From the IMG/VR virus record IMGVR_UViG_3300037524_000636, positions 5,857-69,856 of that record: a stretch of 64,000 bases of DNA. One strand, written 5' to 3'. Position 1 is the stretch's first letter, and each line of letters starts with the position of its first letter. The notes under the pieces are model-generated. The model was not told where the DNA came from, did not search any database, and saw only the letters and a program-made list of their open reading frames with translations. The translations under genes were made by a program, and so were the position numbers. Shown one piece after another: positions 37,250-54,563 of the stretch. The DNA is from a virus (Duplodnaviria; Caudoviricetes).

Positions 37250-38773
37250 ATGAACGAGACAAGATGCCCGTTTGACGATTCGCACCTGTTGGAAGCTGTC
37301 GAACTGTCAGCGCTTCGCCTGCTCCAAGACGGCGTCGTCGCCCTCGCTCGCGTTGAGCACGACGGAGTGCGGGTCGACGTCGACTACCTCAAGGCGAGCC
37401 TCGAGCAAACCTCGCGCAAGTGCACGCGATTGCGCGAGCAGCTTATGTCCGACCCAGTGTGGTCGAAGTGGACCCGACGCTTCCGCGACAGGTCGAAGCT
37501 CGATTCCCGCCAGCAACTCGGCGAGGTTCTCTTCGACGTGCTTGGGTTCCATAGTGAGGCAATCACTACGACTGGGCGCCACCAGGTCGACGAGGCTGCG
37601 CTTGAGCGCGTCGACCACCCGTTCATCAGGCACTACCTCGAGCTGGCGAAGCTTGAGAAGGCGCGCGGGACGTATCTCAAGGGGATCGAGCGCGAAGTCG
37701 TCTACGGATTCGTGCACTGTAGTTTCAACCTGCATACGGTGACGACGTATCGGGGAAGCTGCGACTCGCCCAACCTGCAGAACATCCCGATCCGGAATCC
37801 AGAGATTGGCAAGCTTGTCCGGCGCTGTTTCATCGCGCGCGACGGCCACGTGCTGGTCGAGAACGATTTCAAGGGGATTGAGGTCGGCGTTGCGGCCTGC
37901 TACAATCGCGACCCCAACCTGATCGCCTACGTCCGGGATGAAACGCTCGACATGCACCGGGACGCCGCGATGGAGTTGTTCTTTCTCGACCGCAGTGAAG
38001 TGACAAAGCAAATACGGCACATCGCGAAGAACAGCTTCGTCTTCCCGCAATTCTACGGCGACTGGTATCTCTCATGCGCCCGGAGTATGGTCGACGAGAT
38101 CGAGAAGCGGGCGATCAAGTTCGCTGGCCGCTCGTTCAAGAAGCACCTGGCCAGGCATGGAATCATGTCAATGGGCGCGATGCGCTCGGGCACGGATCCT
38201 GTCGCTGGATCGTTTGAGCAGCACGTCGCGCGCGTCGAACGCTTGTTCTGGGAAAAACGCTTCCGGGTCTACAACCAATGGCGCAACCGGGTTTACCGCC
38301 GCTATCTCGAGGACGGCTACTTCGACACGCACACGGGATTCCGACTGGAGGGCGCGCTCGACCGGAAGCAAGTAGTCAATCACCCAATACAAGGCAGCGC
38401 GTTCCACTGCCTGCTCTGGAGCCTGATCGAGATTCAGCGCGAGTTGGTCCAACACAAGATGCGCTCGAAGATCGTCCTGCAGGTGCATGACTCGATCCTG
38501 GGCGATGTGCACGTTGACGAGGTCGACCAGTATCTCGCGATCGTGCGCGACGTGATCGAGCGACGACTCCGCAAGCATTGGAAGTGGATCGTCGTGCCGC
38601 TTCGGGTCGAGTGTGAGATGTCGCCCGTGGGTGGCTCGTGGTTCGACAAGCGGGAGGTTCACGTCAGCAGCGACAATTACGCCTGGAACGATTTCTCTGG
38701 AAGTGCGAGCGATTTGCTGAGACACTGGACACATGAAACCAAAGTTGAGACTGAAGAAGATCCGGAAAGGTGA
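37250..38773 (+). CDS. DNA polymerase family A, polymerase domain
   Basis: SCDSPNLQNIP, motif A DFKGIE, motif B R..AKNSFVFPQFYG, N.PIQG.A, motif C QVHDS. Confidence 0.93.
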   Translation: MNETRCPFDDSHLLEAVELSALRLLQDGVVALARVEHDGVRVDVDYLKASLEQTSRKCTRLREQLMSDPVWSKWTRRFRDRSKLDSRQQLGEVLFDVLGFHSEAITTTGRHQVDEAALERVDHPFIRHYLELAKLEKARGTYLKGIEREVVYGFVHCSFNLHTVTTYRGSCDSPNLQNIPIRNPEIGKLVRRCFIARDGHVLVENDFKGIEVGVAACYNRDPNLIAYVRDETLDMHRDAAMELFFLDRSEVTKQIRHIAKNSFVFPQFYGDWYLSCARSMVDEIEKRAIKFAGRSFKKHLARHGIMSMGAMRSGTDPVAGSFEQHVARVERLFWEKRFRVYNQWRNRVYRRYLEDGYFDTHTGFRLEGALDRKQVVNHPIQGSAFHCLLWSLIEIQRELVQHKMRSKIVLQVHDSILGDVHVDEVDQYLAIVRDVIERRLRKHWKWIVVPLRVECEMSPVGGSWFDKREVHVSSDNYAWNDFSGSASDLLRHWTHETKVETEEDPER

Positions 38774-39053
38774 CGACCCCGTGAAGTCGCTGCTCCGCCC
38801 CACCGTTGACAACGAGCCAGCGGCGCTGTTGGAGATCGAGCCGGACTGGCACGATCATTGGTGGGGCATGCCACAGTTCGTCATGGGCAACGCAATGCCA
38901 CAGTATCAGGTCGTCGTCAACTTCATGACCGTCGAGGACGTCATCGCCCTCGGCAAGCGTATTGGGATTCCACTTACCGCCAGGTCGAAGTCGATCTGGT
39001 ATCCGCCACAAACCTCTGACGAGCCAAAGCTCTGGGCCTATGTCGAAGACTGA
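38733..39053 (+). CDS. Small partner of TAGT-like glycosyltransferase
   Basis: PDWHDHWWGMPQF..QVVVNFMT homologous to the N-terminus of 53403-54563. Confidence 0.7.
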   Translation: MKPKLRLKKIRKGDDPVKSLLRPTVDNEPAALLEIEPDWHDHWWGMPQFVMGNAMPQYQVVVNFMTVEDVIALGKRIGIPLTARSKSIWYPPQTSDEPKLWAYVED

Positions 39054-39909
39054 CTATCCGATTTACATCCCGACGAAGGGACGCTGGGAGACGTGTCACA
39101 CCGCGCGCCGTTTGTCCGAGATGGATTGCCCGTTCTTTCTCGTCGTCGAGGAGACCGAGGCGAAGAAGTATCGACGCCTGGGTCTCGGCGAGGTTCTCGT
39201 GCTCCCGTTTCACGACCTGGGCAAGGGTTCCATCCCGGCCCGGAACTGGATCTGGGATCATGCGAAGAGCAACGGACACGCGCGACACTGGGTGATGGAC
39301 GACAACGTGGTTCGCTTCTACCGGACGAACTTCAACCGCCGCATCCCGTCGCGCACTGCCGCCATCTTTCGGTGCATTGAGCATTGGTGCGATCGGTATG
39401 AGAACATCGCCTTCGCTGGATTGCAGTATATGACGTTCGCCGTCGATCGTCGTGCTGACATCGCGCCGTTCCAGCTCAACACGCGAGTCTACTCGATGAT
39501 CCTGGTCAACACGGACCTGCCCTATCGCTGGCGTGGACGCTACAACGAGGACACCGACATCTGCCTGCGCGCGCTCAAGGACGGCTGGTGCACAGTCGTC
39601 TTCAACGCGTTCCTCGGTGACAAGACGACCACGATGAAGATGAGGGGCGGCAACACCGACAACGTCTACAACACCGGCGACAAGCGGCTGGCGTTTGCCC
39701 GGAGTCTTGCCAAGCAGCATCCCGACGTCGCGCGCGTCGTCTGGCGATACGATCGTTGGCACCACCACGTCGACTACTCATCCTTCAGGCGCAACGCGCT
39801 TCGTCTTCGGAAAGGCATTACGCCAACCCTGGGATTCGACGAGCACGGCATGCGCTTGGTCCGTCTCCAGAAACCAGATACCGATGAAAAAGAAACCAAC
39901 AACGACTGA
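39040..39909 (+). CDS. TAGT/GREB1-like (GT-A fold) glycosyltransferase, copy 1
   Basis: YPIYIPTKGR, ARNWIWDHA, HWVMDDN, WRGRYNEDTD, GGNT. Confidence 0.75.
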   Translation: MSKTDYPIYIPTKGRWETCHTARRLSEMDCPFFLVVEETEAKKYRRLGLGEVLVLPFHDLGKGSIPARNWIWDHAKSNGHARHWVMDDNVVRFYRTNFNRRIPSRTAAIFRCIEHWCDRYENIAFAGLQYMTFAVDRRADIAPFQLNTRVYSMILVNTDLPYRWRGRYNEDTDICLRALKDGWCTVVFNAFLGDKTTTMKMRGGNTDNVYNTGDKRLAFARSLAKQHPDVARVVWRYDRWHHHVDYSSFRRNALRLRKGITPTLGFDEHGMRLVRLQKPDTDEKETNND

Positions 39910-40900
39910 ACCGTCCGAGGAGCTTTACAAGCGCCATCGTCCCAGCTTGTTCAAGCAGGTCCTGGGCCAACCAGCGGCGATCAAGTCACTTACCTCGATG
40001 CTGGAGAAGAACGCCGTCCCGCACGCGCTTCTCTTCACGGGCCCGTCTGGCGTGGGCAAGACGACGCTCGCGCGCATCATGCAGCGCAAGCTTGGGTGTG
40101 CGGATAGCAACTACACTGAGATCAACGCGGCGAACTTTCGCGGGATCGACACCGTGCGCGACGTTCTCTCGACGATGAGGCTTGCGCCGATCGAGGGCCG
40201 CACCCGGATCTACCTCCTGGACGAGGTGCACAAGCTCACGAGCGATGCGCAGAACGCGTTTCTCAAGGCGCTGGAGGACACGCCAGAGCATGTCTACTTC
40301 TTCCTGTGTACGACCGAGCCCGCTCGCTTGATCCAGACTGTGCTTACGCGATGCACCGAGATCAAGCTCTCGGCGTTGACGGCCGCGAGCATCCGCAAGC
40401 TGGTCGAGGACGTCACCGTGCGCGAGGGCTTCAAGCTTGATGACGAGGTGATAGACCGTCTGGTCGAGGTCGCGAATGGAAGCGCGAGAGTTGCGCTCGT
40501 CGTCCTGCACAAGATCGCTGCGTTGGGCGATGACGTCGGCGTTGACGAGCAGATCGCCGCGATCGAGTCCAGCGACTTCCGTGCGCAGTCGATCGACTTG
40601 GCGCGCGAGCTGACGTCGACGAAGGCGACCTGGCACGAGGTTGCGAAGAAGCTTGTCCTGATCGAGGACGACGCCGAGGGCGTCCGCCGTCTCGTGCTCG
40701 CGTATTGCGCGAAGGCGCTGATCTCTCCGCCTGGCGACGGCAAGCAGCCCGCAGGCGCGAAGGCGAATGCCTACGAGTCCTGGCGACGAGATCGGCTTGC
40801 CGCGATCATCAGCGCCTTCGAGTGCAATTTCTACGACAGCGGTCGCGCGGGCTTGGTCTTCGCTTGCTATCGGATTCTCAGCACAAACGACAATAGGTGA
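39884..40900 (+). CDS. Clamp-loader AAA+ ATPase (DnaX/RFC-like)
   Basis: LY.RHRP.LF..VLGQ, GPSGVGKTT, LDEVHKL, LLK-type FLKALEDTP, TVLTRC. Confidence 0.92.
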   Translation: MKKKPTTTEPSEELYKRHRPSLFKQVLGQPAAIKSLTSMLEKNAVPHALLFTGPSGVGKTTLARIMQRKLGCADSNYTEINAANFRGIDTVRDVLSTMRLAPIEGRTRIYLLDEVHKLTSDAQNAFLKALEDTPEHVYFFLCTTEPARLIQTVLTRCTEIKLSALTAASIRKLVEDVTVREGFKLDDEVIDRLVEVANGSARVALVVLHKIAALGDDVGVDEQIAAIESSDFRAQSIDLARELTSTKATWHEVAKKLVLIEDDAEGVRRLVLAYCAKALISPPGDGKQPAGAKANAYESWRRDRLAAIISAFECNFYDSGRAGLVFACYRILSTNDNR

Positions 40901-40916
40901 CAACGAAGCACGACAC

Positions 40917-41450
40917 ATGAAGAAACCGAAGACAAGCAACCCAATGACGCGCTCGCGCGTCACGCCGGACGTCCTGGCGATCGACGAGCTGCGCCTAGAC
41001 AAGGAGTGGGTGGGTCAGCCACAACTCGCGCTGAACTGGAATGAGAAGCTTGCCGAAGCCAGGCATGTTCACGACTTGGCAAAGGCTGACCTCGACACGC
41101 TCGCGGCGCGCCTGGGCGCATCGATCCGGCTCAAGCCAGAGAGGTATCAGATCGAGAAGATCACCGAGTCAGCGATCACGATGGCCGTGCAATTGGATCT
41201 TGAATACATCGCACAACAACGCCGGGTGATCGACGCGCGCCACGAGGTCGAGCTTGTCCAGGCCGTCGTCACGGCGATCGAACACCGCAAGCGCGCCCTG
41301 ACGAAGCTGGTTGATCTGCATCTCTCGAACTACTTCAGCGAGCCTGGTCGCACGAAAGCGGGCGACCTCTCCGGCAACGCCAAGCGAATCCGATCTCGCG
41401 AGAACACCCGCCGCGCGCTTTCCGAGAACGAAGTGGGCGACGAGGATTGA
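40917..41450 (+). CDS. UvsY-like recombination mediator
   Basis: L.IDE..LD.EW..QP.L helical pattern; before SSB and RecA-like genes. Confidence 0.55.
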   Translation: MKKPKTSNPMTRSRVTPDVLAIDELRLDKEWVGQPQLALNWNEKLAEARHVHDLAKADLDTLAARLGASIRLKPERYQIEKITESAITMAVQLDLEYIAQQRRVIDARHEVELVQAVVTAIEHRKRALTKLVDLHLSNYFSEPGRTKAGDLSGNAKRIRSRENTRRALSENEVGDED

Positions 41451-41453
41451 CCG

Positions 41454-41648
41454 ATGTCGCTCATGCACACGATCATCCTGGTGTTGGTTGTCACATTGAC
41501 GACGTTCCTGCTCCTGCCCATGCTCGTGTTTATCATTGTCCGTATGGTGAAGAGGGCCTGGTATTTGCCCATTCACTACACACCACAAAACCAAACAACA
41601 AAAAGCAATGGCAACGAACAGACAAAAGCAAAAGAAGACGACCGATGA
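41454..41648 (+). CDS. Small membrane protein
   Basis: Long N-terminal hydrophobic stretch. Confidence 0.45.
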   Translation: MSLMHTIILVLVVTLTTFLLLPMLVFIIVRMVKRAWYLPIHYTPQNQTTKSNGNEQTKAKEDDR

Positions 41649-42879
41649 CGAGTTCTTGGGCGCCAAGAACCGTCACGAGCGACACAAGGCTGCGGGCGAG
41701 TTCTCGCCTGACACGCTCAAACTGTCCAAGGGCGCGAAGCTCTTCCGCTTCCGACAGGAGGGCGTCTACTACCTCGACATCATTCCGTATCGAGTGGGCA
41801 AGGGCAACCCGAACGCCGACGAGGGCAAGGTGTATTGGGAGCGCACGTTCTACGTTCACCGGATGCCAGAGGGCGGCCAGCACGTGTGCTTGCGCCGCAC
41901 GTTGAACCAGCCGTGCCCGATTTGCGAGTTCTCTCGCAATCTCGCGAACAGCGACGACGTGGACGAGAAGCTGGTCACGGACCTGCGCTCGAAGGAGCGG
42001 CAGCTCTTCAACGTCATTGACACGCGCGACCGCAAGGCTGGTATTCAACTCCTGGAGATCAGCTATCATCTCTTCGGGACGCTGCTCGATGATCGCACGC
42101 AGCCCAACGAGGACGACCCGGATGACGACGGCAGTGTGTATTCGGACTTCGCGCACTGGGCGAAGGGCTTCACGCTTCGGCTCACGGTGAAGAAGAAGAA
42201 AATGGGAATGAACTCGTTCATGGAGGTCACGGCAATCGATTTCAAGCCCCGTCGCCAACAGTATGAGAAGTCGATCCTGGACGAAGCCTATTGCCTCGAC
42301 GACCTGCTCGTGGTCAAGACCTACGATGAGTTGAAGAAGCTGGTGCTGGGTCTCGACGCATCGAGCGCGGGCGACGACGACGATGCCGAGCCGTTCCCGG
42401 CGAAGAAGAAGGCGAAGAGCAAGCCGCCCGTCGACGATGACGACGACGAGTCCGACGACGACGACGATGAGGAGGACGACGAGTCCGACGACGACGAGTC
42501 CGACGACGAGGATGACGACGAGGAGGAGGACGAGGTTCCGGCGAAGACGAAGACGAAGACGAAGACGGCGAAGAGCAAGCCACCCGTCGACGACGACGAG
42601 GACGACGACGAAGACGAGGACGAGTCCGACGACGACGAGGACGACGACGAAGACGAAGACGAGTCTGACGACGACGACGACGAAGACGAGGACGAGTCCG
42701 ACGACGACGACGACGACGAGGACGACGACGAAGACGACGAGGACGACGACGAAGACGAGACTGACGACGACGACGACGACGATGACGACGACGAAGACGA
42801 CGAATCACGCAAGCCCTCGCGTGGAAAGCCCGCCCCTGCTAGCAAACGGGCAGCGCCTGCCCGCAAGCGCGGCAAGTAA
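41608..42879 (+). CDS. gp32-like single-stranded DNA-binding protein with a very long acidic tail
   Basis: LDIIPY, FYVHR..CL..CPICE, NVID, G..LRL; about 140-aa Asp/Glu tail. Confidence 0.7.
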   Translation: MATNRQKQKKTTDDEFLGAKNRHERHKAAGEFSPDTLKLSKGAKLFRFRQEGVYYLDIIPYRVGKGNPNADEGKVYWERTFYVHRMPEGGQHVCLRRTLNQPCPICEFSRNLANSDDVDEKLVTDLRSKERQLFNVIDTRDRKAGIQLLEISYHLFGTLLDDRTQPNEDDPDDDGSVYSDFAHWAKGFTLRLTVKKKKMGMNSFMEVTAIDFKPRRQQYEKSILDEAYCLDDLLVVKTYDELKKLVLGLDASSAGDDDDAEPFPAKKKAKSKPPVDDDDDESDDDDDEEDDESDDDESDDEDDDEEEDEVPAKTKTKTKTAKSKPPVDDDEDDDEDEDESDDDEDDDEDEDESDDDDDEDEDESDDDDDDEDDDEDDEDDDEDETDDDDDDDDDDEDDESRKPSRGKPAPASKRAAPARKRGK

Positions 42880-42914
42880 ACGAACACCAAGCCCGCAACC
42901 AACAAACGCGATGA

Positions 42915-42947
42915 GGCCCCGGTTGAACTCGACATTCAACCGGGGCC
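42915..42947 (+). other. 13-bp perfect hairpin between ssb and the recA-like gene
   Basis: ggccccggttgaa/ttcaaccggggcc; no U-tract. Confidence 0.7.
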
Positions 42948-42962
42948 GATTCGTTTGAAGCC

Positions 42963-44060
42963 ATGTCGAAGATCAAGAGAGAAGTCGCGAGCGCGATCGC
43001 AAGCCTGCACAAGGTCGCTGGACCGCCGGACAAGAAGATCGCACTCAACTCGGGGAGCACATTGGTCAATCTTGCCTTCACGGGAACGCCGAACGCCGCG
43101 TATTTGCCTGGCAAATACTACTTGCTGGTCGGAGATTCGAGTGCAGGCAAGACGTTCCTTGCGATGACGGCACTGGCGGAAGCCTGCCAGTCGAAGCTTT
43201 TCGAGAACCACGAGTTGTATCTCGACAACGTGGAGGACGGCGCGCTCATGGACGTTGAGCACTTCTTCGGGAAGAAGCTAGCGGAGCGATTGCGCCCACC
43301 GAGATACGAAAAAGGAATTCCCGTCTACAGTTCGACCGTCGAGGACTTCTATGACAACCTGTCGCGGGCGCATGCGCGCGCCGTGAATACGGGAAAGCCC
43401 TACGTCTACATCCTGGACAGTGAGAACGCACTCAGCAGTGAAGCCGAGCAAAAGAAGCACGAAGCGCAGCGCAAGGCGCGAGTCAAGGACGTCGAAGCGG
43501 CTGGAAGCTATGGCGACGCGAAAGCGGCCTACCACAGCCAGCATCTCAGGATCGCGCGTATCAATCTTCGGGATACGGCGAGCATCCTGATCATCCTCAG
43601 TCAAACGCGCGACAACCTGGGCTTTGGCTTTGAGAAGAAGACGAGAAGTGGCGGCCGTGCGCTCAAGTTCTATGCCTCTGTTGAAGCGTGGTTGTCCGTG
43701 GAGAAAGTGCTGAAGAAGACTGTCCGGGGAAAGCCGCGCGAGATCGGTATCATGACCAAGCTGCAAGTGCGCAAGAATCGCACGACGGGGCGCCTGCGCG
43801 TGGTCTCGGTACCCATCCTGCACTCGGCAGGCGTCGACGACCTGGGCTCGTGCATCGACTACCTGGTCGAAGAGAGCTACTGGAAGGCGATCAAGAAGAC
43901 GATCAAGGCGCCGGACTTCGAGTTCGAGGGCTCGCGCTCGGGGCTGATCGAGTTGATCGAGAAGAGCAACCGAGAGCGCGAGCTGCGCGCTCTCGTCACC
44001 GACGTCTGGCGCGAGATTGAGGAGGCGTGCGAGGCGTCGCGAAAGCCTCGATACCGATGA
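42963..44060 (+). CDS. RecA/UvsX-like recombinase
   Basis: GS..VNLA, Walker A GDSSAGKT, ILDS, SQTRD, GGRALKFYASV. Confidence 0.9.
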   Translation: MSKIKREVASAIASLHKVAGPPDKKIALNSGSTLVNLAFTGTPNAAYLPGKYYLLVGDSSAGKTFLAMTALAEACQSKLFENHELYLDNVEDGALMDVEHFFGKKLAERLRPPRYEKGIPVYSSTVEDFYDNLSRAHARAVNTGKPYVYILDSENALSSEAEQKKHEAQRKARVKDVEAAGSYGDAKAAYHSQHLRIARINLRDTASILIILSQTRDNLGFGFEKKTRSGGRALKFYASVEAWLSVEKVLKKTVRGKPREIGIMTKLQVRKNRTTGRLRVVSVPILHSAGVDDLGSCIDYLVEESYWKAIKKTIKAPDFEFEGSRSGLIELIEKSNRERELRALVTDVWREIEEACEASRKPRYR

Positions 44061-44932
44061 GCGCGCCCGAGTCTACGATGACGTCCGAGCCTGCGGTCGA
44101 CCTGATGCTGATCGACTGCGACTTCATGTGCCACCGTGCCTACTACTCGACAGGCATGTTGCAGCACAATGGTCGACCGACGGGAGTCATCTACGGGTTC
44201 ATGGTTGCGCTCGCCGACTTGATCGATCGCTTCGCGCCTGCCACGATTGGGTTCTGCTTCGACTACGGGCTGCCGAAGCGAGTGTCGTTGTTTCCTGCAT
44301 ACAAGGCGAATCGCCGGGCTACAGGCGAGAGCCGAACCAGGGAGGAGATCGAGCAGCGCAAGCGATTCGACCAGCAACGCGACGAGTTGCGCCACAGGAT
44401 GATCAACTCGCTCGGCTTCCAGAACGTGTTCTACCAACGGCACTACGAGGCGGACGACCTGATCGCGAAGCTGGCGATCGAGTTGTCGGCTCATCGCGTC
44501 GTCATCGTGAGCGCAGACAGCGACTTGTGGCAACTCCTGCGCCCTGGACTGCGGATCTTCAACCCGATCAACAAGCGCGTCGCGACGAAGAAGTGGTTCA
44601 TCAAGGCTTACGGAATCGATCCTGACCACTGGGCGCTGGTCAAGGCAATCGCTGGATGCACGAGCGACAACATTCCAGGTGTGCGTGGCATCGGCACAGC
44701 GAGCGCGATTGCTTACTTGAATGGCGCGCTCAGGCATACTGGGCGCCTCGAGTTGATCGAGAGCGCAATCAAGAATGGCGAGATCGAGCAATACCTCGCC
44801 TTGACTAGGCTACCGATGAAGGGGGTCGAGTCGATGCGAATACGCAAGGAGCGATTCGACCCGCAGGCCTGGATCGACCTGGCGACGACAATAGGCTCGC
44901 CCGTACTCAAAAAACACTTACCGAGGATTTGA
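44057..44932 (+). CDS. 5'-3' exonuclease / flap endonuclease (RNase H-like)
   Basis: LID.DF..HRA, FD, YKANR, EADDLI, SADSDL.QL, G.TSDNIPGVRGIG. Confidence 0.92.
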   Translation: MSAPESTMTSEPAVDLMLIDCDFMCHRAYYSTGMLQHNGRPTGVIYGFMVALADLIDRFAPATIGFCFDYGLPKRVSLFPAYKANRRATGESRTREEIEQRKRFDQQRDELRHRMINSLGFQNVFYQRHYEADDLIAKLAIELSAHRVVIVSADSDLWQLLRPGLRIFNPINKRVATKKWFIKAYGIDPDHWALVKAIAGCTSDNIPGVRGIGTASAIAYLNGALRHTGRLELIESAIKNGEIEQYLALTRLPMKGVESMRIRKERFDPQAWIDLATTIGSPVLKKHLPRI

Positions 44933-44933
44933 C

Positions 44934-45539
44934 ATGGCTAAGGGATCATCATTCGAGCGCGACGTTTGCAAGCGGCTTTCGCTCTGGTGGACCAGCGACA
45001 AGCGCGACGACATCTTTTGGCGCACGGCGTCGAGTGGCGCCCGAGCGACGCAGCGACGCAAGCAGGGCAAGCGCACGGCGAACAGCTATGGCGACGTCTG
45101 CGCGACTGATCCGATTGGGCAGCCCCTCATCGACCTGCTCTCGATCGAGCTGAAGCGCGGCTACAACCGCACGCACTTCGCCGACCCGTTCGACGCGCCT
45201 GAGATGTCGCAGCCCAGCGCCTGGGAATCGTTCGTGCTCAAGGCATCGCGCGACGCGACTGTGGCCCGCTCGTTCTCCTGGATGCTCATCACCAGGCGTG
45301 ATCGTCATCGAAGCGTCGCGACGATGCCGAAACACTTGTTTGTTGGACTGCAGTCTGTGGGAGCGTTTGGCAAGCGCACACCGATCCCGTTCGTCACGTT
45401 CAACGCGCGACTTCGGGCGAAGGGCGAGAAGCCGATTGTATTCAAGCTCAGGATATGCTTGCTGGACGACTTCCTCGACTCAGTAACACCCGCCCATGTC
45501 CGGGCTCTCGCGATGAGGCACAAGCATGCAACACCGTGA
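44934..45539 (+). CDS. Holliday junction resolvase (PD-(D/E)XK)
   Basis: KGSSFER.V.K.LS.WW, R...SG, GD, SIELKRG. Confidence 0.75.
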   Translation: MAKGSSFERDVCKRLSLWWTSDKRDDIFWRTASSGARATQRRKQGKRTANSYGDVCATDPIGQPLIDLLSIELKRGYNRTHFADPFDAPEMSQPSAWESFVLKASRDATVARSFSWMLITRRDRHRSVATMPKHLFVGLQSVGAFGKRTPIPFVTFNARLRAKGEKPIVFKLRICLLDDFLDSVTPAHVRALAMRHKHATP

Positions 45540-47424: not shown

Positions 47425-47498
47425 TTCCCGTAGACTTGCGCAACCATCGGAACAATTCCGACGATTGTTGTCGACTACGGCGTTCCGATGACGATGAT
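47421..47498 (+). promoter_or_regulatory. Promoter/operator block (GTCGAC-N17-GATGAT) duplicated at 54591-54680
   Basis: 19/21 match TTGA.T.CCGTAGACTTGCGC plus shared downstream boxes; ATG 8 nt after GATGAT. Confidence 0.6.
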
Positions 47499-47506
47499 GG
47501 ACGTCG

Positions 47507-47776
47507 ATGACACACAACACACACAACACCGCAACCGAAGCAACGTCCCGCCGCCGCGTGACGTTCCGCACGCTCGTCGACTCCGACGTGGGTGAGCCGA
47601 TCATGGTCGAGATCGACGCGCGCTCATTCGCATCGATCCACGACGCTTGCCCGTCGAAGGGCTGGCCGGTTCTCGTGATCTTCACCGATCGCCGGATCCG
47701 CACCCGTCGCTTTCGCACTGTGCGCGACGCGATCAAGGGCGTCCGCTCCGTCGCCCGCAACTTCATCAACCTTTGA
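47507..47776 (+). CDS. Small early protein (MTHNTHNT...)
   Basis: Directly after promoter block. Confidence 0.6.
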   Translation: MTHNTHNTATEATSRRRVTFRTLVDSDVGEPIMVEIDARSFASIHDACPSKGWPVLVIFTDRRIRTRRFRTVRDAIKGVRSVARNFINL

Positions 47777-47787
47777 GCCGCACAACG

Positions 47788-48153
47788 ATGACGACTCCAG
47801 CCGATCTCCGAATCATCAACGAGCGCAACAAAGCGCGAGCGCGCTTGCCCGAGCTCGTCGCCGCGATCAAGGGCACGCATCGCGACCCGTCGCAGGTCGC
47901 CGAGCGTGGTCGCTTGCTCAACGAATACGCCGCCGCAGTTTGGGCAGCGAACGCGCGCACTGGCGCCGAGATGGACGCGATGGCAGACGCGATCGACCGC
48001 GCGATCAAGCGCGACGAAGAGCGACGCACCCGCGAGGTCGCCGAGCTCGAGGCAAAGCAACAAGCGCACCGCGACGCGCTCAAGCCGTCCGGCGTGAAGA
48101 TCGAGCCCGCGTCGCTCGCCGCGATCCTGGGCAATATCGATTTCCGGGGCTGA
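47788..48153 (+). CDS. Early helical hypothetical protein
   Basis: CA-rich leader; coiled-coil. Confidence 0.6.
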   Translation: MTTPADLRIINERNKARARLPELVAAIKGTHRDPSQVAERGRLLNEYAAAVWAANARTGAEMDAMADAIDRAIKRDEERRTREVAELEAKQQAHRDALKPSGVKIEPASLAAILGNIDFRG

Positions 48154-48204
48154 TCAGCTCCAGCAACGACAACAACACGAGACACACAACACGAGACACA
48201 CAAC

Positions 48205-48447
48205 ATGGCACACAACACGACACGCAACACGACGACCCGATGCCGGCTCGTCATCTGGGACTGGGAAGACCAGCCCGATTGGGACAGCATCAACGACGCA
48301 CTCGCCGAATTCGAGTCGCCGATGATTCACGCGATCGCGAGCGACAACGACGACAACAACCGCGTCCTGATTTCCGAGCGCAACGCGTTCAGGAACAGGG
48401 CCGAGATCGAGCGCGCCGCGCGCGACGAGGAGGAAGAAAACTCATGA
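48205..48447 (+). CDS. Early hypothetical protein
   Basis: Preceded by a 14-bp CA-rich tandem (48173-48214); WDWEDQPDW motif. Confidence 0.6.
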   Translation: MAHNTTRNTTTRCRLVIWDWEDQPDWDSINDALAEFESPMIHAIASDNDDNNRVLISERNAFRNRAEIERAARDEEEENS

Positions 48448-49040
48448 AGACGGGACACAACGCGAAAGCGACGAACGCGAAGCCGCCCTTGCGGACGGCT
48501 TCGTCCGTTAAGGCGAAGACGAAGCCCGCTCCAAAGACGAGCGCGAAGACGAAGCCCGCTCCAAAGACGAGCGCGAAGACGAAACCCGCGAAGACGAAGA
48601 GGCAGCTGCCGAGTGAGCGTCTCGGCGTGCCAGCGACGACGCCGGACGTCGACATCAAGCTGGATCGAATCTCGGCGATCATGAAGAAGAAGAGCCAGAA
48701 GAGCCCGTTTTGGGACGACGATGACGACGCGCAGGAGCCCGCGCCTGTCCAGTCCCTGCCCGCCCCTGGCTCGAATGGCACGAGCGCGAGCGACGACACG
48801 TCCTTGGCACCTCCAGGCCCGCGTGAGCTGAAGAACCCGCAACCCGTTGCCGGCTACTTCAACGTGACGACGCGCGCAGGCAGTCACGTCGTCATCGTCG
48901 ACGTTGCGGACAAGACGTCGCATGACCTCCAGGTCTATGCGCGCGACCTCCGCACGACGATGACCGTGAAGCGTAGCGACCTCATTCCTGCCGACGTCGT
49001 CGACGCGATCGTCGACCAGTTGCGCAAGCTCAAGAGCTGA
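48444..49040 (+). CDS. Lys/Ala/Pro-rich protein with a 30-bp tandem repeat (AKTKPAPKTS x2, 48513-48583)
   Basis: Repeat read directly; small beta domain at C-terminus. Confidence 0.6.
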   Translation: MKTGHNAKATNAKPPLRTASSVKAKTKPAPKTSAKTKPAPKTSAKTKPAKTKRQLPSERLGVPATTPDVDIKLDRISAIMKKKSQKSPFWDDDDDAQEPAPVQSLPAPGSNGTSASDDTSLAPPGPRELKNPQPVAGYFNVTTRAGSHVVIVDVADKTSHDLQVYARDLRTTMTVKRSDLIPADVVDAIVDQLRKLKS

Positions 49041-49078
49041 ACACCGTAACAACAAACCGAATACAGGAGACACACAAG

Positions 49079-49263
49079 ATGAGAACACAACAGATGAAAC
49101 CAAGTGCGGCGCTCGTCACGACGAGCGTCTGGAGGGCCTGGAGCGGATTCTCCGCTTGCAATTCCTGGATGAGCGCGACCGCCCGAAATACGAGATCGAG
49201 CGATTCCAGTTGCTCAGGATCCAACTCGACAACCTCGCGAGACAGGACCAACCCAAGCCGTAG
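49079..49263 (+). pseudogene. Small gene with an apparent frameshift near its start
   Basis: Protein-like frame DETKCGARHDERLEGLERILRL..KP* ends at TAG 49261-63 but is out of frame with the leader-supported ATG 49079. Confidence 0.4.
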
Positions 49264-49284
49264 TCATCGAGCAAATACCAAGCA

Positions 49285-49491
49285 ATGAGCACCGTGCCAA
49301 AGAGGATCAGCTTGAAATTGTTGGGCCTGGATGGAAACGCGTTCGCCCTGATGGGCGCGTTCAGGAAGCAGGCCAGGATCGAGGGCTGGACCGACGACGA
49401 GATTGCGGTCGTGCTCGTCGACGCAATGAGCGGAGACTACTCGCGCCTGCTTTACGTTCTTTCGAGCCATTGCGAGCCTCCGCACGAGTAG
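49285..49491 (+). CDS. Conserved small phage protein
   Basis: L.GLDGNAFALMG..R..G..EI..AMSGDY..LL motif. Confidence 0.75.
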   Translation: MSTVPKRISLKLLGLDGNAFALMGAFRKQARIEGWTDDEIAVVLVDAMSGDYSRLLYVLSSHCEPPHE

Positions 49492-49516
49492 TCATCGAGC
49501 AAATACATCGGAAGGA

Positions 49517-49553
49517 GCAAAAGGGCGTTGCAAGTGCGGCGCCCTTTTGCTTT
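49517..49553. terminator. Bidirectional-type Rho-independent terminator
   Basis: gcaaaagggcg/cgcccttttgc stem ending early island 2. Confidence 0.75.
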
Positions 49554-49565
49554 GCCTCGATCAAC

Positions 49566-50522
49566 ATGCCCACGAAGCGCAAGAGAACAGGCAAGGGAAA
49601 ATACACCGACCAGCTCGCGATCGACATCGCCCTGCTCGCCCTGACAGGCGCGAATGATCGCACGATTGCGAAGACGATCGGAATACACGAGCGCGTCCTC
49701 GCCGACTGGAGGGACGCAAAGCCCCTGGTCGCCTACGCCTTGAATCGAGCCCGATCAAGCGACTTCCAGTCCGTGAAGTCCTTCAGCAAATACGTCTACA
49801 AGTGCCTCTCGCCGAAGATGCGTCGCCTGTGGGACCGGATCGAGTTCTACCAGGAGCACCCCAACGCCCATCAACGCATCAACGCCCTCCTGGCTGAGCA
49901 GGGCCTCAGGGTCAGGCAGAGCCTCTTCGTCCACGCGATGATCCAGGCGAACTTCAACGCATCGGAAGCCTGCCGAATGATTTCCCTCCCCTACGCCCAA
50001 TTCCGTAGATGGGTGTATGATGATCCTGGATTCCGGCAACTGCTGGACGAGGTGCATTGGCACAAACAAAATTGGGTGGAGGGAAGCCTCATGAATCTGA
50101 TCGCCACCGGAAACACCCTGGCGACCATTTTTGCCAGCAGGACCCTCAATAGGGACAGGGGCTATTCCGACAAGGTGGACGTCAATGTAACTGGAACGAT
50201 CAAGCACGATGTATCAGTCAAGGTCGTGCGAGTCGACGAGCTGAAACTGAGCATTGAGACAAGAAGGGAGTTGTTGCAAGCCCTGCGAGAGAGAAAGCAG
50301 CCCCTGTATCAGCGCGCCCTCGACGTGCCACAAGAGAACGCGCTCGCATTGCCAACTGCTGGTGTGAATGGGGAGAACACACGCGCAGCAGGATCACACG
50401 AATCTGGGCATGCGAGAAATGTTGAATTCGGGCATGCGAGAAATGTTGAATTCGTGCCCGATCCCTCGCCTACGCCCGCCCGCGGGCCAGGTCTCTCGCC
50501 GATTGAGGTCGTCGACGAGTGA
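49566..50522 (+). CDS. terS: Terminase small subunit
   Basis: Two HTH-like segments; EGSL..G..ATIF..RT..RDRGY.DK.V.V motif; upstream of terL. Confidence 0.65.
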   Translation: MPTKRKRTGKGKYTDQLAIDIALLALTGANDRTIAKTIGIHERVLADWRDAKPLVAYALNRARSSDFQSVKSFSKYVYKCLSPKMRRLWDRIEFYQEHPNAHQRINALLAEQGLRVRQSLFVHAMIQANFNASEACRMISLPYAQFRRWVYDDPGFRQLLDEVHWHKQNWVEGSLMNLIATGNTLATIFASRTLNRDRGYSDKVDVNVTGTIKHDVSVKVVRVDELKLSIETRRELLQALRERKQPLYQRALDVPQENALALPTAGVNGENTRAAGSHESGHARNVEFGHARNVEFVPDPSPTPARGPGLSPIEVVDE

Positions 50523-50903
50523 CGCAACGGTCGGCAGGACGACGCGAGCGAGTGACGAACCATCGGAGATGAAGCTACGGCGAAGAGCGCACTACGGAAA
50601 CGGGCCTTTCCTCCTGCGCTTGTGCATCATGCGCAGGCTTGAGCGCGCGCATGCGTGGGCGCATTGCACGAGCACACGCGCGCAATTACACGCACGCACA
50701 CGCGAGGGCGCATGGCATGCGAGCGCGAAAAGCTGCCAGTCCTGGGTCGGAAGAGCCCGTGCCCATGTCTCGCACGCATTCACGAGTGAAGGGCGGGAAT
50801 TCTTGCCCGCCCTGGTCAGCCCTGGCCAGGCCATCGACGCACCACGACGCGGTTTCGAGCCCCCACCACTCAACCGATCACTCCATGCGACAATAACGAC
50901 GCC

Positions 50904-51131
50904 ATGACGACACAACACGACACACCGCACCTGAGCGCGAGCGCGTTCGATGATGCGCTCGCGCTCAACGCACTTCCAGCCGAGTGCACGGTTTCGTTCG
51001 ACGAGCGAGACGTCGAACAAACTTCCCATCGCCTGCTTCGCCTGCTTCGGTTGGGCTACATTGCACAAGCTGAACGAAGGGATGGTCTCAGCTCTCTCCG
51101 AACCTGGCGCATCGCGCGCAAGACGACATGA
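50904..51131 (+). CDS. Small hypothetical protein
   Basis: ATGA coupling to next gene; CA-rich start. Confidence 0.5.
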   Translation: MTTQHDTPHLSASAFDDALALNALPAECTVSFDERDVEQTSHRLLRLLRLGYIAQAERRDGLSSLRTWRIARKTT

Positions 51132-51841
51132 ACGTCAGCAACAATCTGATCCGTCTCGTCTACGTTTGCTTCGGCTCGGAGTCATTCGCGCGACTTGCCC
51201 GATGGTCGCTCTCGACTCTCCGGGCGACGAAGACAAGGTTGCCCGTCTGGGTCTTGACCAATCGCACTATGGCGCACGACTTCTCGGAGTTCGACCACGT
51301 CGTGCGGGTCGATCCCGATCCCGCGCTCGTGCGCGTGGGCCATCGCGCGGCCCACCTCGACTACAAGGGTGCGCTCATTGTCGCGCTCCTTGAGCGAGAG
51401 TGGTTGCCGATCGTTACGGTCGACGTTGACAGCGAGTTCCTCCGGGACCCATCGCCTGAGTTGGAGTCGATCGTCGAGCCGTTCGCAATGTGCCCGGCTC
51501 CCGATGATCCGATCATTGAGCATGCGCAAGGGAGCTGCATCGAGCGTCAGAGTGGCCTCATGGCCTTCCCGATCGCGCGCGATCACGAGAGCATCGCCCG
51601 GCTTTACCGAAGAGCGTTCGACGAGCTTCGCCTGCACACGAGCGAAGGCTGGCGAAGCGATGCCTTGCTTGAAGAGCGCGCTTGGTCGCTCGTGCACGCC
51701 AGGCTCGCGCCGCAAGTCACACTCTTGCCCAGGACGTTGAACTGGTCGCGCCTGTGGGGCATGCCTCCGCACGATGTTGCGCTCGTGCATCATCATGGGA
51801 ATGCGAAGTTCATCCTGCCGAACTTGGAGGGCTTGCGATGA
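51128..51841 (+). CDS. GT-A fold nucleotide-diphospho-sugar transferase (GT8-like)
   Basis: VWVLTN, DXD (VDVDSEF..DP), QSGLM.F, LLP..LNW, LVHHHG..K. Confidence 0.6.
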   Translation: MNVSNNLIRLVYVCFGSESFARLARWSLSTLRATKTRLPVWVLTNRTMAHDFSEFDHVVRVDPDPALVRVGHRAAHLDYKGALIVALLEREWLPIVTVDVDSEFLRDPSPELESIVEPFAMCPAPDDPIIEHAQGSCIERQSGLMAFPIARDHESIARLYRRAFDELRLHTSEGWRSDALLEERAWSLVHARLAPQVTLLPRTLNWSRLWGMPPHDVALVHHHGNAKFILPNLEGLR

Positions 51842-53406
51842 CTCGCACCTACACGGAGCAAGCGTCGAGACGCGCCTGGAGTGATGCCCTCACGACCGAC
51901 CGGGGGCGCAAGGACGCACCTGCCCTGGACGAGGACGATCTTGTCGCGTCGACGTGCCGAGACTCGCTCGAGGACTTCGTCCGGGAGTTCTGGGACGAGG
52001 TCGTGCCGCAGCCCCTGGTCTGGAATTGGCACATGACGTGCATTTGCGAGGCATTGCAGCGCGTCGCCGAGCGCGTCTTCGCTGGCAAGCCGAAGCTGTA
52101 TGACCTGATCGTCAACGTCCCGCCAGGCACGAGCAAGAGCACGATTTGCAGCGTCATGTTTCCGGCCTGGACGTGGACCCGGATGCAAAGCGCGATCACG
52201 ATAGGCGTCAGCTACACCGAGCGACTCGCGCTCAATCTCGCGCGCAAGCAGCGCGAGTTGATCCGAAGCGACAAGTATCAGCGCGTCTTCGGGCTCGGCA
52301 AGCTCAAGGTCGACCAGGACCTGAAGGGTCACTACGAGAACGAGCAGGGAGGCGCGCGCATCTCGTTTGGCACCGGGGGCACGACCGGCTACCACGCCCA
52401 CTTCCTCATCGTCGACGATCCGCTCAATCCGAACGAGGCGGCAAGCGAGACTGAGCTTCGCTCCTGCAACGACTGGATGGACTCGACCTTGTTCACTCGC
52501 AAGGTCGACAAGGAGGTCTCGGCGACGATCCTGATCATGCAGCGCTTGCACCAGGCGGATCCGACGCAGCACATGCTGGACCGGGCGAACGACGACAACC
52601 CGATCAAGCACATCAGGCTGCCAGGCGAGCTGGTCGCAGGCATCGAGCCCGTTCCGGCGTCGTTGCGCGAGCACTACGTCGACGGCCTGCTCGACGTGCA
52701 TCGGTTGAAGCGACGACAGCTCGCCGAGCTCCGGATCAAGCTGGGCGACTACGGTTACGCCTCGCAAATCCTCCAGGTTCCTGTGCCCCCGGAGGGAGGC
52801 ACGTTCATCGTCGAGCGGTTTCGCATCGCGCATCCCACGGTGACGATCGTTCGGCAAGCCCGGTTTTGGGACAAGGCGGCGACGCCTGGGAAGGGCGACT
52901 GGTGCGCGGGAGTCCTGGTGGGTCGCGACATCAACAACGCCTGGTGGGTGCTCGATGTGCGGCGTGGCCGGTGGGACACGCACACGCGAGAGCAGGTCAT
53001 CCGGGACACGGCAGAGCGCGACGGGGCGGCGACGTTGATCGGGATCGAGCAGGAGCCCGGGAGCGGGGGCGTCGACTCGGCCTGGATGACGATTTCTAAC
53101 CTGGACGGATTCAACGTGCGGGCCTTTCGCTCGACTGGCTCGAAGGTCGAGCGCGCGACGCCAGTCTCCGTGCAAGTCAACGCGCGCAACTTTCTCATTG
53201 CCGCCCAGGCGTCGTGGCTCTCCGACTTCATCTCCGAGCTGCATCACTTCCCATTCGGCCTGCACGATGATCAAGTCGACGCTCTCGCCGGAGCGTTCAA
53301 CATGCTGGCAGGGGTGGGTCCGCGCAAGCGAGCAGGCGCGCTCATGCGCAGGCGAGTCGTGCGTCCGCCTTCGCCCGACGATCGAGCGACGACAATACAG
53401 GCATGA
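51838..53406 (+). CDS. terL: Terminase large subunit
   Basis: WNWH, Walker A NVPPGTSKS, Walker B LIVDDP, nuclease WDKA..D..G, G.KV.RA, HDDQVDA. Confidence 0.93.
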   Translation: MTRTYTEQASRRAWSDALTTDRGRKDAPALDEDDLVASTCRDSLEDFVREFWDEVVPQPLVWNWHMTCICEALQRVAERVFAGKPKLYDLIVNVPPGTSKSTICSVMFPAWTWTRMQSAITIGVSYTERLALNLARKQRELIRSDKYQRVFGLGKLKVDQDLKGHYENEQGGARISFGTGGTTGYHAHFLIVDDPLNPNEAASETELRSCNDWMDSTLFTRKVDKEVSATILIMQRLHQADPTQHMLDRANDDNPIKHIRLPGELVAGIEPVPASLREHYVDGLLDVHRLKRRQLAELRIKLGDYGYASQILQVPVPPEGGTFIVERFRIAHPTVTIVRQARFWDKAATPGKGDWCAGVLVGRDINNAWWVLDVRRGRWDTHTREQVIRDTAERDGAATLIGIEQEPGSGGVDSAWMTISNLDGFNVRAFRSTGSKVERATPVSVQVNARNFLIAAQASWLSDFISELHHFPFGLHDDQVDALAGAFNMLAGVGPRKRAGALMRRRVVRPPSPDDRATTIQA

Positions 53407-54563
53407 GTTGCATGCACGACGACGAGGCTGCCCGCAGGCTGGCCAGGCCTGTGCGCCAAAGCGCGCCTGACGCGCTCTTCGAGATCCCACCGGACTGGCG
53501 CGAGCACTGGTGGCAGATGCCCAGCTTCCGGATGCGCGACGCGACCGCGTTGCATCAGGTCGTCGTCAACTTCATGACCCGCGAGGACATCGAGTGTTTC
53601 TCGCAGCTCACTGGTCTTCCAGTCGCGGAGACCTCGTCGTCGACCTGGTTCCCACACCAATTGCGCCTGAATGGCAGCTACGAATACGACGGCGGCCCAG
53701 TGCCCAACAAGTATCCGATCTGTCTTCCGTCGAAGGGGCGCGCGGACTGCCAACGCACGGCGCGCGTCCTTGATCGCATGGGCCTGCCATATCGCTTCTT
53801 CGTCGAGAAAACCGAGTTCCGGGAATACGTCAGGCACCTGGGGCGCGAGCGCGTCGTCCGGATGCCGTTTCACGATCTGGGCAAGGGTTCCATCCCTGCG
53901 CGCAACTACATTTGGGACTGGGCGCGCGATCACGGGCATCGGAGGCATTGGGTCGTCGATGACAATATCATCGCCTTTGCGCGCTGCAACGACAATCGGC
54001 GCCTGTGCGTGCGCGGGGGCGGGTTCTTCCGGGCGATGGAGGACTTTGTCGATCGGTATGAGAACATTGCCCTGGCCGGGCCGCACGAGCGCGGTTTCAT
54101 GCCAGATCGCAACGGGCGCGCGTCGCCCTACCTCCTGAACACCCGGGTCTACTCCTGTATCCTGATCGACACTACACTGCCAGATCGGTGGCGGGGTCGC
54201 TACAACGAGGACACGGACCTGTCGCTCCGCCTGCTCAAGCAGGGCTGGTGCACGCTCGTCTTCCGCGCCCTGCTCATGCGCAAGTGGTCCACCGTGGGTG
54301 TCGTGGGGGCGAAGGCACTCAGGGGCGGCAACACTGACCATGTCTACAACACCGGCGACCACCGGCGCGAGTTCGCCGAGAGCATCGCGCGCCAGCACCC
54401 GGACGTCGCTCGCGTCGTGTGGCGCTTCAACCGGTGGCATCATCTCGTCGACTACTCGCTTTTTCGGCACAACAAGCTGCGACTCAAGCCCGGTGTGGTT
54501 CCCGTTCCGGGCGACAACGAATACGGGATGAAGCTCGTCCGGACGAAGAAGCTGGCAAAATAG
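53403..54563 (+). CDS. TAGT/GREB1-like glycosyltransferase, copy 2, fused to its small partner domain
   Basis: N-terminus matches 38733-39053 and the rest matches 39040-39909 (KYPICLPSKGR, ARNYIWDWA, HWVVDDN, WRGRYNEDTD). Confidence 0.78.
   Translation: MSCMHDDEAARRLARPVRQSAPDALFEIPPDWREHWWQMPSFRMRDATALHQVVVNFMTREDIECFSQLTGLPVAETSSSTWFPHQLRLNGSYEYDGGPVPNKYPICLPSKGRADCQRTARVLDRMGLPYRFFVEKTEFREYVRHLGRERVVRMPFHDLGKGSIPARNYIWDWARDHGHRRHWVVDDNIIAFARCNDNRRLCVRGGGFFRAMEDFVDRYENIALAGPHERGFMPDRNGRASPYLLNTRVYSCILIDTTLPDRWRGRYNEDTDLSLRLLKQGWCTLVFRALLMRKWSTVGVVGAKALRGGNTDHVYNTGDHRREFAESIARQHPDVARVVWRFNRWHHLVDYSLFRHNKLRLKPGVVPVPGDNEYGMKLVRTKKLAK

Follow-up and report, generated by a model that had tools for sequence, protein, structure and literature searches.

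Two loci encoding TAGT-family glycosyltransferases (GT) lie in the 64,000-nt window, that is, the whole stretch of viral DNA analysed here, each together with a small module that we call WWxMP after its W..W.MP motif (Table 1). Copy 1 sits between the polymerase part of a split PolA and a gene for a clamp-loader AAA+ ATPase, copy 2 between the large terminase and portal genes. Copy 1 encodes the module on its own, as a 106-aa protein that aligns to residues 7-86 of the fused 386-aa protein of copy 2 with 46% identity (E 4e-25), while the 289-aa catalytic subunit aligns to residues 104-383 with 58% identity (E 4e-113). A preliminary description of this DNA had equated the split pair with the single ORF and had placed one copy beside the polymerase and the other beside terminase. 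The ORFs lie at the coordinates it gave, the alignments and the family assignments of the neighbours (PF00476, Terminase_6C) agree with it on both counts, and the motifs it quoted, PFHDLGKGSIPARN, RWRGRYNEDTD and GGNTD.VYNTGD, are recovered in the 289-aa ORF.

Table 1. Genes of the two glycosyltransferase loci and their neighbours (window coordinates)
Feature	Position	Strand	Basis
sliding-clamp-like processivity factor	34875..35975	+	phrog_947, E 1.6e-27
UDG-like domain + 3'-5' exonuclease (N-terminal part of split PolA)	35972..37246	+	PF03167, PF01612
family A DNA polymerase, polymerase part	37250..38773	+	PF00476, E 8.9e-54
small WWxMP adaptor protein, stand-alone, copy 1, 106 aa (P0001)	38733..39053	+	46% identity to N-terminus of fused copy
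TAGT-family GT-A glycosyltransferase, catalytic subunit, copy 1, 289 aa	39040..39909	+	PF20691 165.3 bits, E 2.3e-48
clamp-loader-like AAA+ ATPase	39884..40900	+	PF13177 and AAA families; in-frame ATG at 39884
large terminase subunit (TerL), directly 5' of copy 2	51682..53406	+	PF17289 Terminase_6C
fused WWxMP + TAGT glycosyltransferase, copy 2, 386 aa	53403..54563	+	PF20691 123.6 bits over residues 104-297
portal protein, downstream of copy 2	55876..57537	+	PF06381, E 4.7e-25

Arrangement and integrity of the two copies

Both loci are tightly packed. The small gene shares its first 41 nt with the end of the PolA gene, the two ORFs of copy 1 have 14 nt in common, read in different frames, and the start of the AAA+ gene overlaps the stop of the copy 1 GT by 26 nt; likewise the ATG of copy 2 overlaps the TerL stop. 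Promoter and terminator scans gave at most weak consensus matches, to which no weight was given on timing. Comparison of 20 kb with 50,697 phage records at the nucleotide level returned no match. The UDG and PolA domains, split here, are joined in a single 823-aa protein in one relative (L087).

A single indel in the linker, the meeting point of the two frames of copy 1, would join them, and no clear Shine-Dalgarno precedes the ATG at 39040. These features would suit a decaying remnant: the fused copy would then be the sole working enzyme and the split one a pseudogene created by a frameshift, or both copies would be remnants. We consider this very improbable. In an independent wetland run (X3), a 427-nt contig covers 38909-39335 with zero differences and zero gaps, so that the split is not the error of one assembly. 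Both parts retain all invariant residues, and their modelled complex, described below, passes its controls. Most of 80 related viral loci encode the small protein in an overlapping gene of its own, and dozens of diverged relatives usually show the same two overlapping ORFs. The split form is thus the common state among IMG/VR relatives and no oddity, the fused form dominating another large clade. RNA-library contigs also cover 38717-39037, a weak hint that may reflect DNA carry-over and was not counted as expression. In a quick tree the two copies fall in different clades, the copy 1 GT being the sister of a split form from another genome (L002); they do not therefore stem from a recent duplication within this genome.

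A basic catalytic core and a small acidic module

The Pfam TAGT family (PF20691) was reportedly defined in Iyer et al. 2013. Both catalytic parts cover its full 205-position profile with scores (Table 1) far over the gathering cut-off of 27.5 bits, both match phrog_842, and a six-frame search of the genome with PF20691 finds the same two places. The AF2 model of the fused protein (pLDDT 88, pTM 0.89) is a single compact body, which Foldseek relates to GT-A enzymes in the PDB and to TAGT-domain proteins in BFVD, so that the family assignment made for both genes in the preliminary description holds. The nearest folds are phage TAGT-domain proteins, including the T-even-type beta-glucosyl-HMC-alpha-glucosyltransferase; protein and teichoic-acid glycosyltransferases are among the nearest solved folds. 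DDN (87-89) and NEDTD (169-173) are invariant in the alignment of the copy 1 GT, with DDN so conserved in sets of 24 and 56 sequences; it is a DxD-type nucleotide-sugar/metal motif with a putative role in catalysis. Homologues of copy 2 number over 6,388, and those ranking highest measure about 380 aa and share 59-67% identity with it. The cores of the GTs are basic: their median pI is 9.06, and the net charges in this phage are +12 and +22.

The small WWxMP protein matches no Pfam, PHROG or NCBIfam family, and NCBIfam has no family for either part nor for seven unannotated ORFs. A single-sequence search of longer proteins with P0001 returned nothing and an alignment profile was required: built from 27 homologues, it reaches 3,294 representative clusters, and over the genome it matches these two places only. 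Phage P12024S, whose gp27 is a 116-aa hypothetical protein, gave no WWxMP match. W43, M46, P47, S87, W89 and P91 are invariant in the small protein, and the W..W.MP ... S.W.P signature is present in both copies, adjacent to or fused with the TAGT core. The module lies next to a GT in 79 of the 80 related viral loci. An overlapping ORF of its own is the rule there, but fusions also occur, and at some loci another GT stands between the two. The fusions that can be recognised join it to TAGT, less often to ParB_N (5/66) and, by a faint match, to PD-(D/E)XK.

Modelled alone, the small protein reaches a pLDDT of 68, and its best PDB match (Z 2.2 over 43 residues) is not meaningful; it probably folds fully only when on the GT. 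The model of the copy 1 complex gives an ipSAE of 0.87 against 0.53 for the best control, the mark applied being attained by 58/80 solved complexes and by 2/110 mismatched pairs. Contacts agree between runs for at least 85%, with a partner pLDDT of at least 74, and on the small protein the interface takes in residues 42-55 and 96-106; no solved complex of like kind was found among PDB fold matches. The model supports docking of the small module on the GT core through the invariant W/M/P motif. From the fusion, the preliminary description had taken the WWxMP protein for a functional subunit; with repeated fusion and fission, near-constant adjacency and a complex model that holds up against its controls, we now regard it as a genuine partner of the enzyme. 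A large share of orphan TAGTs are probably two-part enzymes with this conserved, unnamed module as the docking piece.

Acceptor and target

The window belongs to a 69,856-bp contig from a wetland, with a CheckV completeness of 91%. The preliminary description had seen no base-hydroxylating partner and had proposed to search the rest of the genome for hmU/hmC-making genes. The whole contig bears it out: at E<=10, no TET/JBP (PF12851), ThyA-type hydroxymethylase (PF00303) or dCMP deaminase was found, nor any match to the C5-methylase family PF00145, the alpha-GT PF11440 or the beta-GT PF09198. Two 2OG-oxygenase families besides TET/JBP were also searched for in the genome, with no match. Such a partner belongs to the genomic context of TAGT enzymes and is no sequence criterion for the family.

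The usual chemistry, i.e. glycosylation of hydroxymethyl- or hydroxy-pyrimidines, would then call for a hydroxylating enzyme that escaped detection: a very divergent oxygenase or hydroxymethylase in the unannotated ORFs, a gene on the 9% of the genome that the contig lacks, or a host enzyme. In favour of this reading, some ten ORFs in the range of 230-420 aa match no family and the contig is incomplete; phage-specific 5mYOX profiles yield thousands of contigs without PF12851 annotation (PMC13229309); and the cultured carriers Kuja, PTm1 and henriette encode ThyA-family proteins, which may be thymidylate synthases or hydroxymethylases. Nevertheless, six-frame searches with PF12851, PF00303, PF13640 and PF13532 give no candidate even at E<=10, and both contig ends fall in structural genes. 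Among 25 relatives, some of them rated about complete by CheckV, none matches PF00303 at the search threshold or PF12851 above the cut-off (one weak 16-bit PF12851 match lies in a 19%-complete fragment). No third gene accompanies the adaptor and GT pair across lineages, and genes 42 and 56 are absent from phages Aeh1 and 65 (PMC2993671). We therefore hold an undetected enzyme to be rather unlikely.

Several observations point to DNA as the target. Neighbouring genes belong to DNA metabolism or packaging in every lineage examined, and in relatives sugar-nucleotide genes or extra GTs adjoin the GT. ParB_N and PD-(D/E)XK, the sole recognisable non-TAGT partners of WWxMP, provide a further link to DNA; phage ParB-like proteins activate DNA-base dioxygenases (PMC13229309). 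The small module being acidic, it looks like a docking piece more than a DNA binder, which weakens the argument. To our knowledge, every characterised TAGT relative uses an acceptor hydroxyl first created by another enzyme; none being encoded here, this also counts against DNA.

We give an even chance to the proposal that the two loci encode self-contained, heterodimer-type DNA glycosyltransferases in the replication and packaging operons. Each would combine a basic GT-A TAGT core with the small acidic module, docked by its invariant W..W.MP motif and C-terminal tail, as a translationally coupled separate protein in copy 1 and as N-terminal domain in copy 2. Their most likely job would be to glycosylate the phage's own DNA after replication with a host nucleotide-sugar, copy 1 presumably being expressed alongside the replisome genes (PolA, clamp, clamp loader) and copy 2 alongside the packaging genes (terminase, portal). 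The outcome could be two different sugars or linkages, or two modification times, on an acceptor that would be neither hydroxymethyl-cytosine nor hydroxymethyl-uracil from any known route. A DNA substrate and two steps or stages, as proposed in the preliminary description, are suggested by family membership, gene neighbourhood and ParB_N fusions, and the purpose may be protection from host nucleases. A more radical form, which we rate as improbable, is that adaptor and TAGT make a complete, portable system placing sugar straight onto a canonical DNA constituent, without hydroxylation, at replication and at packaging; the site may be an exocyclic amine or another native nucleophile. We know of no DNA glycosyltransferase that attaches sugar without prior hydroxylation.

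Alternatively, these modules could glycosylate a protein or another non-DNA molecule, with WWxMP as the target-selecting adaptor. The target might be a protein of the virion or of packaging, part of the replisome, a host factor or some small molecule. We find this less probable than a DNA target, though appreciably likely. The TAGT-family protein GREB1 O-GlcNAcylates a protein (PMC7968844), protein and teichoic-acid enzymes stand among the nearest solved folds, and searches for TET/JBP and ThyA-type enzymes found no acceptor-making enzyme encoded in 26 genomes. The gene lies among terminase, portal and head genes in copy 2, in Vibrio phage 1.076.O and in relative L096. The adaptor is acidic, and its N-terminus in large contigs bears a conserved motif, also acidic, that resembles a protein-contact peptide. 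On the other hand, the closest viral relatives by profile and fold are DNA-type TAGTs, the adaptor's fusion partners are DNA-related (ParB_N), most contexts are replication/recombination operons, and the GT core is strongly basic.

The puzzle of the orphan acceptor is already in the literature, with Aeh1 and solitary TAGTs: published surveys found solitary TAGTs in 288 of 753 phages and no base-modifying enzyme nearby in about 65% of GT contigs. TAGT-type enzymes without a known route to an acceptor base occur in thousands of phage genomes, for which adaptor plus core offers a defined minimal unit for expression and assay, and Aeh1, 65, phiAS5 and 1.076.O are cultured carriers in which to seek the product. 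A new DNA modification would matter for how phages resist restriction and CRISPR, for the defence systems by which modified DNA is sensed and for DNA-labelling enzymes. A protein target would instead reveal a new and widespread phage activity of host takeover or virion decoration.

Relation to known TAGT systems

We know of no WWxMP module in human GREB1, although it belongs to the same Pfam family. GREB1 is an O-GlcNAc transferase with a protein substrate and a eukaryotic multidomain architecture (PMC7968844).

The beta-glucosyl-HMC-alpha-glucosyltransferase of T2/T6 shares with the present enzymes PF20691, the GT-A fold and its phage encoding (PMC13216743, PMC2993671), and its T-even-type homologue from Klebsiella phage PKO111 matches the model with a Foldseek E of 6.5e-11. 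The T6 enzyme glucosylates alpha-glucosyl-hmC and therefore needs the gp42 hydroxymethylase and the alpha-GT, both absent from this phage. It is moreover a weak PF20691 member (39 bits vs 124-165 here) with no WWxMP module within 1.5 kb on either side, so that function may not transfer from it.

Phage GT-A DNA glycosyltransferases associated with 5mYOX/TET or ThyS, and the trypanosome base-J glucosyltransferase, are likewise of GT-A DNA type, with replication/packaging neighbourhoods for the phage enzymes. The 5mYOX/ThyS systems involve ParB-like proteins and have in common with our relatives nearby sugar-nucleotide genes and secondary GTs (bioRxiv 10.1101/2023.12.21.572611; PMC13229309). Their substrates, however, are 5hmC or 5hmU, produced either by a methylase and a dioxygenase encoded alongside or by a ThyS homologue; none of these is present in this genome, and none scores over the cut-off in 25 relatives. 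A separate adaptor subunit was not found for them in the text consulted (Pyle et al.; PMC13229309).

A further parallel is ORF087c of Aeromonas phage Aeh1 with its homologues in 65, phiAS5, Tenacibaculum PTm1, Vibrio Kuja and Vibrio 1.076.O, which show the same fusion of WWxMP and TAGT with 35-40% identity over 80-97% of the protein. The Aeh1 protein has been entered as 'presumably modifies DNA, unknown base' (PMC8056088), and the 1.076.O gene lies within the head module, like copy 2. These phages carry one fused copy each (two in tandem in Kuja), whereas the present phage combines a split copy with a fused one, each from its own clade and in a different operon.

Two copies and their gene neighbours

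The preliminary description had proposed that a small adaptor ORF carrying the WWxMP module and the adjoining TAGT glycosyltransferase (GT) ORF (copy 1) together correspond to a single fused ORF (copy 2). The correspondence holds: the 106-aa adaptor aligns with residues 7-86 of the 386-aa fused protein at 46% identity (E 4e-25), the 289-aa GT with residues 104-383 at 58% identity (E 4e-113), and the motifs quoted at the time lie in the GT ORF. Both catalytic parts match phrog_842 and Pfam TAGT PF20691 (165 bits for copy 1 and 124 bits for copy 2; cut-off 27.5 bits). The proposed placement of one copy beside the polymerase and the other beside terminase was also confirmed, copy 1 following the polymerase ORF and copy 2 starting on the stop codon of the large terminase, with the portal gene downstream.

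The polymerase is itself a second split/fused pair in the copy 1 operon, since its domains occupy two successive ORFs (35972-38773) and are joined in a single 823-aa UDG+PolA protein (L087:13438-15909) in a related locus that shares the window's replication module. Two inverted copies of a 25-nt motif, 84% complementary and located in two intergenic gaps, bracket a unit from about 47.5 kb to the end of copy 2. Elsewhere, Rad50 may be split around Mre11, because the N-terminal ATPase ORF and the ORF with weak C-terminal matches flank the latter.

Features of the window discussed in the text
Feature	Position	Strand	Remarks
Methyltransf_24 SAM methyltransferase	20386-20925	minus	after the weak Rad50 C-terminal ORF; recombination-nuclease cluster 20386-23785
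ORF with weak ABC-signature/Rad50 C-terminal matches only	20922-21785	minus	same cluster
Mre11-like phosphoesterase	21798-22745	minus	same cluster
Rad50/SbcC-like N-terminal ATPase ORF	22715-23785	minus	same cluster
HNH endonuclease ORF	24921-25343		PF14279/PF01844; start of rightward early region
UDG-like domain + 3'-5' exonuclease	35972-37246		first ORF of split family-A polymerase, upstream of copy 1
Polymerase part	37250-38773		split family-A polymerase, directly upstream of copy 1
Copy 1, WWxMP adaptor	38733-39053	plus	
Copy 1, TAGT GT	39040-39909	plus	
Clamp-loader gene	ATG 39884		overlaps 3' end of copy 1
25-nt motif	47467-47491		
ORF of 366 aa	47940-49040		no family; ACACAAC-type 12-14-nt and 30-nt repeat units
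Short tandem repeats	48160-48233, 48513-48602		within the 366-aa ORF
Copy 2, fused WWxMP + TAGT	53403-54563	plus	
25-nt motif	54636-54660		inverted
Sigma-70-like site	54653-54680		after the second motif copy

The split form and the small WWxMP module

In copy 1 the adaptor and GT ORFs lie in different frames and share 14 nt, at the position of the linker in the fused copy, and a contig of another wetland sample spans 38909-39335 with zero differences and zero gaps. Pseudogenisation is very improbable. Among the best 80 of 424 related viral loci, the module adjoins the GT in 79, usually as an ORF of its own that is in another frame and overlaps the GT slightly, and is fused to it in a few; about 15 have an intervening gene, a GT1-type transferase or a second, divergent TAGT. 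In random picks from the profile search, the small gene is again directly ahead of the TAGT gene. From the junction confirmed in a second sample, these loci and these picks, fission and fusion have recurred and the split form is a normal state.

A quick maximum-likelihood tree groups the split copy with the split form of locus L002 as its sister (SH-aLRT 95) and puts the fused copy within a clade of fused proteins with 31 rows (SH-aLRT 99). Identity between the two copies is 58%, against 65-72% with their nearest relatives elsewhere. They are not products of a recent duplication. Only 3 of 15 genomes checked have two PF20691 matches, the second being a weak, divergent TAGT in the other two. 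Two 151-nt wetland metatranscriptome contigs match the adaptor gene (38717-39037) with 0-1 differences, possibly through DNA carry-over.

The small protein has no family in Pfam, PHROG or NCBIfam. Residues W43, M46, P47, S87, W89 and P91 are invariant in a 27-sequence alignment, and a search of 1.84 billion proteins with the module profile gives 3,294 representative clusters at E<=0.001, mostly stand-alone (80-130 aa), with some tandem repeats. Of 66 longer module-containing proteins, about 48 carry TAGT, 5 ParB_N (PF02195) and one a faint PD-(D/E)XK match. In locus L096, the ORF of a ParB_N+WWxMP protein (226 aa) overlaps a TAGT gene (311 aa) immediately 5' of terminase and portal genes; the ParB_N architecture is seen more weakly in L026 and one Atlas cluster. 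The available text of the literature on these phage enzymes holds no description of such an adaptor module, the paper defining TAGT standing outside this comparison.

The module modelled alone gives a poor fold (pLDDT 68), for which the PDB offers no match. The fused protein gives one confident body (pLDDT 88, pTM 0.89), and the complex of the window's two separate proteins scores 0.87 versus 0.53 for the best control. Of 80 solved complexes, 58 attain the mark for this score, as do 2 out of 110 mismatched pairs. The runs share 85% or more of their contacts, with partner pLDDT of at least 74. On the small protein, the modelled interface is made up of residues 42-55 (WWGMPQF motif) and the C-terminal tail (96-106); the GT contributes residues 262-276 and the hairpin that follows the DDN motif. 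As a prediction, the complex model supports binding of the adaptor to the GT core. The median pI is 9.06 for the GT cores, which are basic (net +12 and +22 in the window), and 4.9 for the acidic small proteins.

Several variations were observed among relatives. Small-protein ORFs of about 200 aa have two tandem WWxMP-type repeats in L027, L030, L057, L064, L068, L071, L073, L074 and L076; all nine of these sampled loci hold two GTs (TAGT plus a GT1-type enzyme or divergent second TAGT), a pattern that may mean one adaptor repeat for each enzyme, and some single-repeat adaptors likewise lie in two-GT clusters. Small proteins of 100-170-kb contigs (e.g. L028, L031, L049, L050) show a conserved acidic N-terminal peptide, approximately V.E(S/T).EY(E/D)(N/S)(F/C)(L/I/M), ahead of the WWxMP core (columns 15-35 of the small-protein alignment A2). 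Absent from the window's two copies, this peptide may mediate contact with another protein. In Aeromonas phage phiAS5, ORF0217 (L081:6050-6310), right after the fused TAGT gene, gives a weak additional WWxMP-like match (E 7.6e-5), suggesting a second, free adaptor copy. In Vibrio phage henriette 12B8 (NC_021073 ~20960-22158; L085:4591-4962 and 5001-5789), no RefSeq gene is annotated over the TAGT homologue, and a split WWxMP ORF lies just 5' of it, between clamp-loader genes and dUTPase/DNA polymerase.

Acceptor and substrate

The window spans bases 5857-69856 of its source contig, which is single and linear (69,856 bp, IMG/VR; G+C about 60%), and near-identical sequence is present in three wetland metagenome runs. 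It is 91% complete (CheckV) with structural genes at both ends, so almost the whole phage could be searched. The first reading had seen no TET/JBP, dCMP hydroxymethylase or dCMP deaminase and had suggested looking for hmU/hmC genes in the rest of the genome. Six-frame searches of the whole contig (E<=10) bear this out, with no match to TET/JBP, the thymidylate-synthase family, C5 DNA methylase, 2OG-FeII_Oxy_3, 2OG-FeII_Oxy_2, ParB_N, dCMP deaminase, alpha-GT or beta-GT. Among 25 longer related virus genomes, several of them approximately complete per CheckV, none has PF00303 (ThyA family) at the search threshold or PF12851 (TET/JBP) above cut-off, the single weak PF12851 match (16 bits) lying in a fragment 19% complete. 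A hydroxylase that is cryptic or missing is improbable. Among cultured phages that carry the fused form, a ThyA-family gene is absent from Vibrio phage 1.076.O, and phiAS5 has one match (315 bits), read as an ordinary thymidylate synthase.

Orphan TAGTs are already a published open problem and not new from this window, given the Aeh1 homologue listed in a 2021 survey as a glucosyltransferase that "presumably modifies DNA", "unknown base" (PMC8056088), the solitary TAGT homologues of 288 out of 753 phages (PMC13216743) and about 65% of GT contigs with no base-modifying enzyme adjacent (bioRxiv 10.1101/2023.12.21.572611). Genes 42 and 56 are recorded as absent from Aeromonas phages Aeh1 and 65 (Petrov et al., PMC2993671). 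In a 64-kb contig (L086:11142-13692), a fused TAGT is followed by NAD-dependent epimerase/dehydratase, UDP-glucose/GDP-mannose dehydrogenase and dCMP deaminase genes, a pentose or uronic-acid donor being likely made by that phage; the window has no genes of this type.

As substrate of both enzymes we favour DNA, at about an even chance, because both share their family and fold with the DNA-type TAGTs, genes of replication, recombination and packaging adjoin these loci across unrelated phage lineages, the adaptor fuses to ParB_N, the catalytic core is basic, and relatives are accompanied by sugar-nucleotide enzymes and extra GTs, which suggest glycan building. Phage ParB-like proteins have been published as activators of DNA-base dioxygenases (PMC13229309). 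A protein or other non-DNA target, the main rival, is rather unlikely, with these points in its favour: GREB1 is a protein glycosyltransferase, no acceptor-making gene travels with the module, and the module recurs among head and packaging genes. By analogy with the paired T4 transferases (PMC13216743), the location of copy 1 in the polymerase/clamp-loader operon and of copy 2 in the terminase operon is compatible with two stages of action or two products, which we only infer.

Relation to characterised glycosyltransferases

Fold matches include phage TAGT-domain proteins, among them a T-even-type beta-glucosyl-HMC-alpha-GT (E 6.5e-11), and PDB matches are generic GT-A enzymes only, at 8-15% identity. 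The T6 enzyme reaches 39 bits on PF20691, versus 165 and 124 for the window copies, and its neighbourhood is without the WWxMP module. On this evidence, WWxMP-bearing proteins form a distinct, very large branch of the TAGT family.
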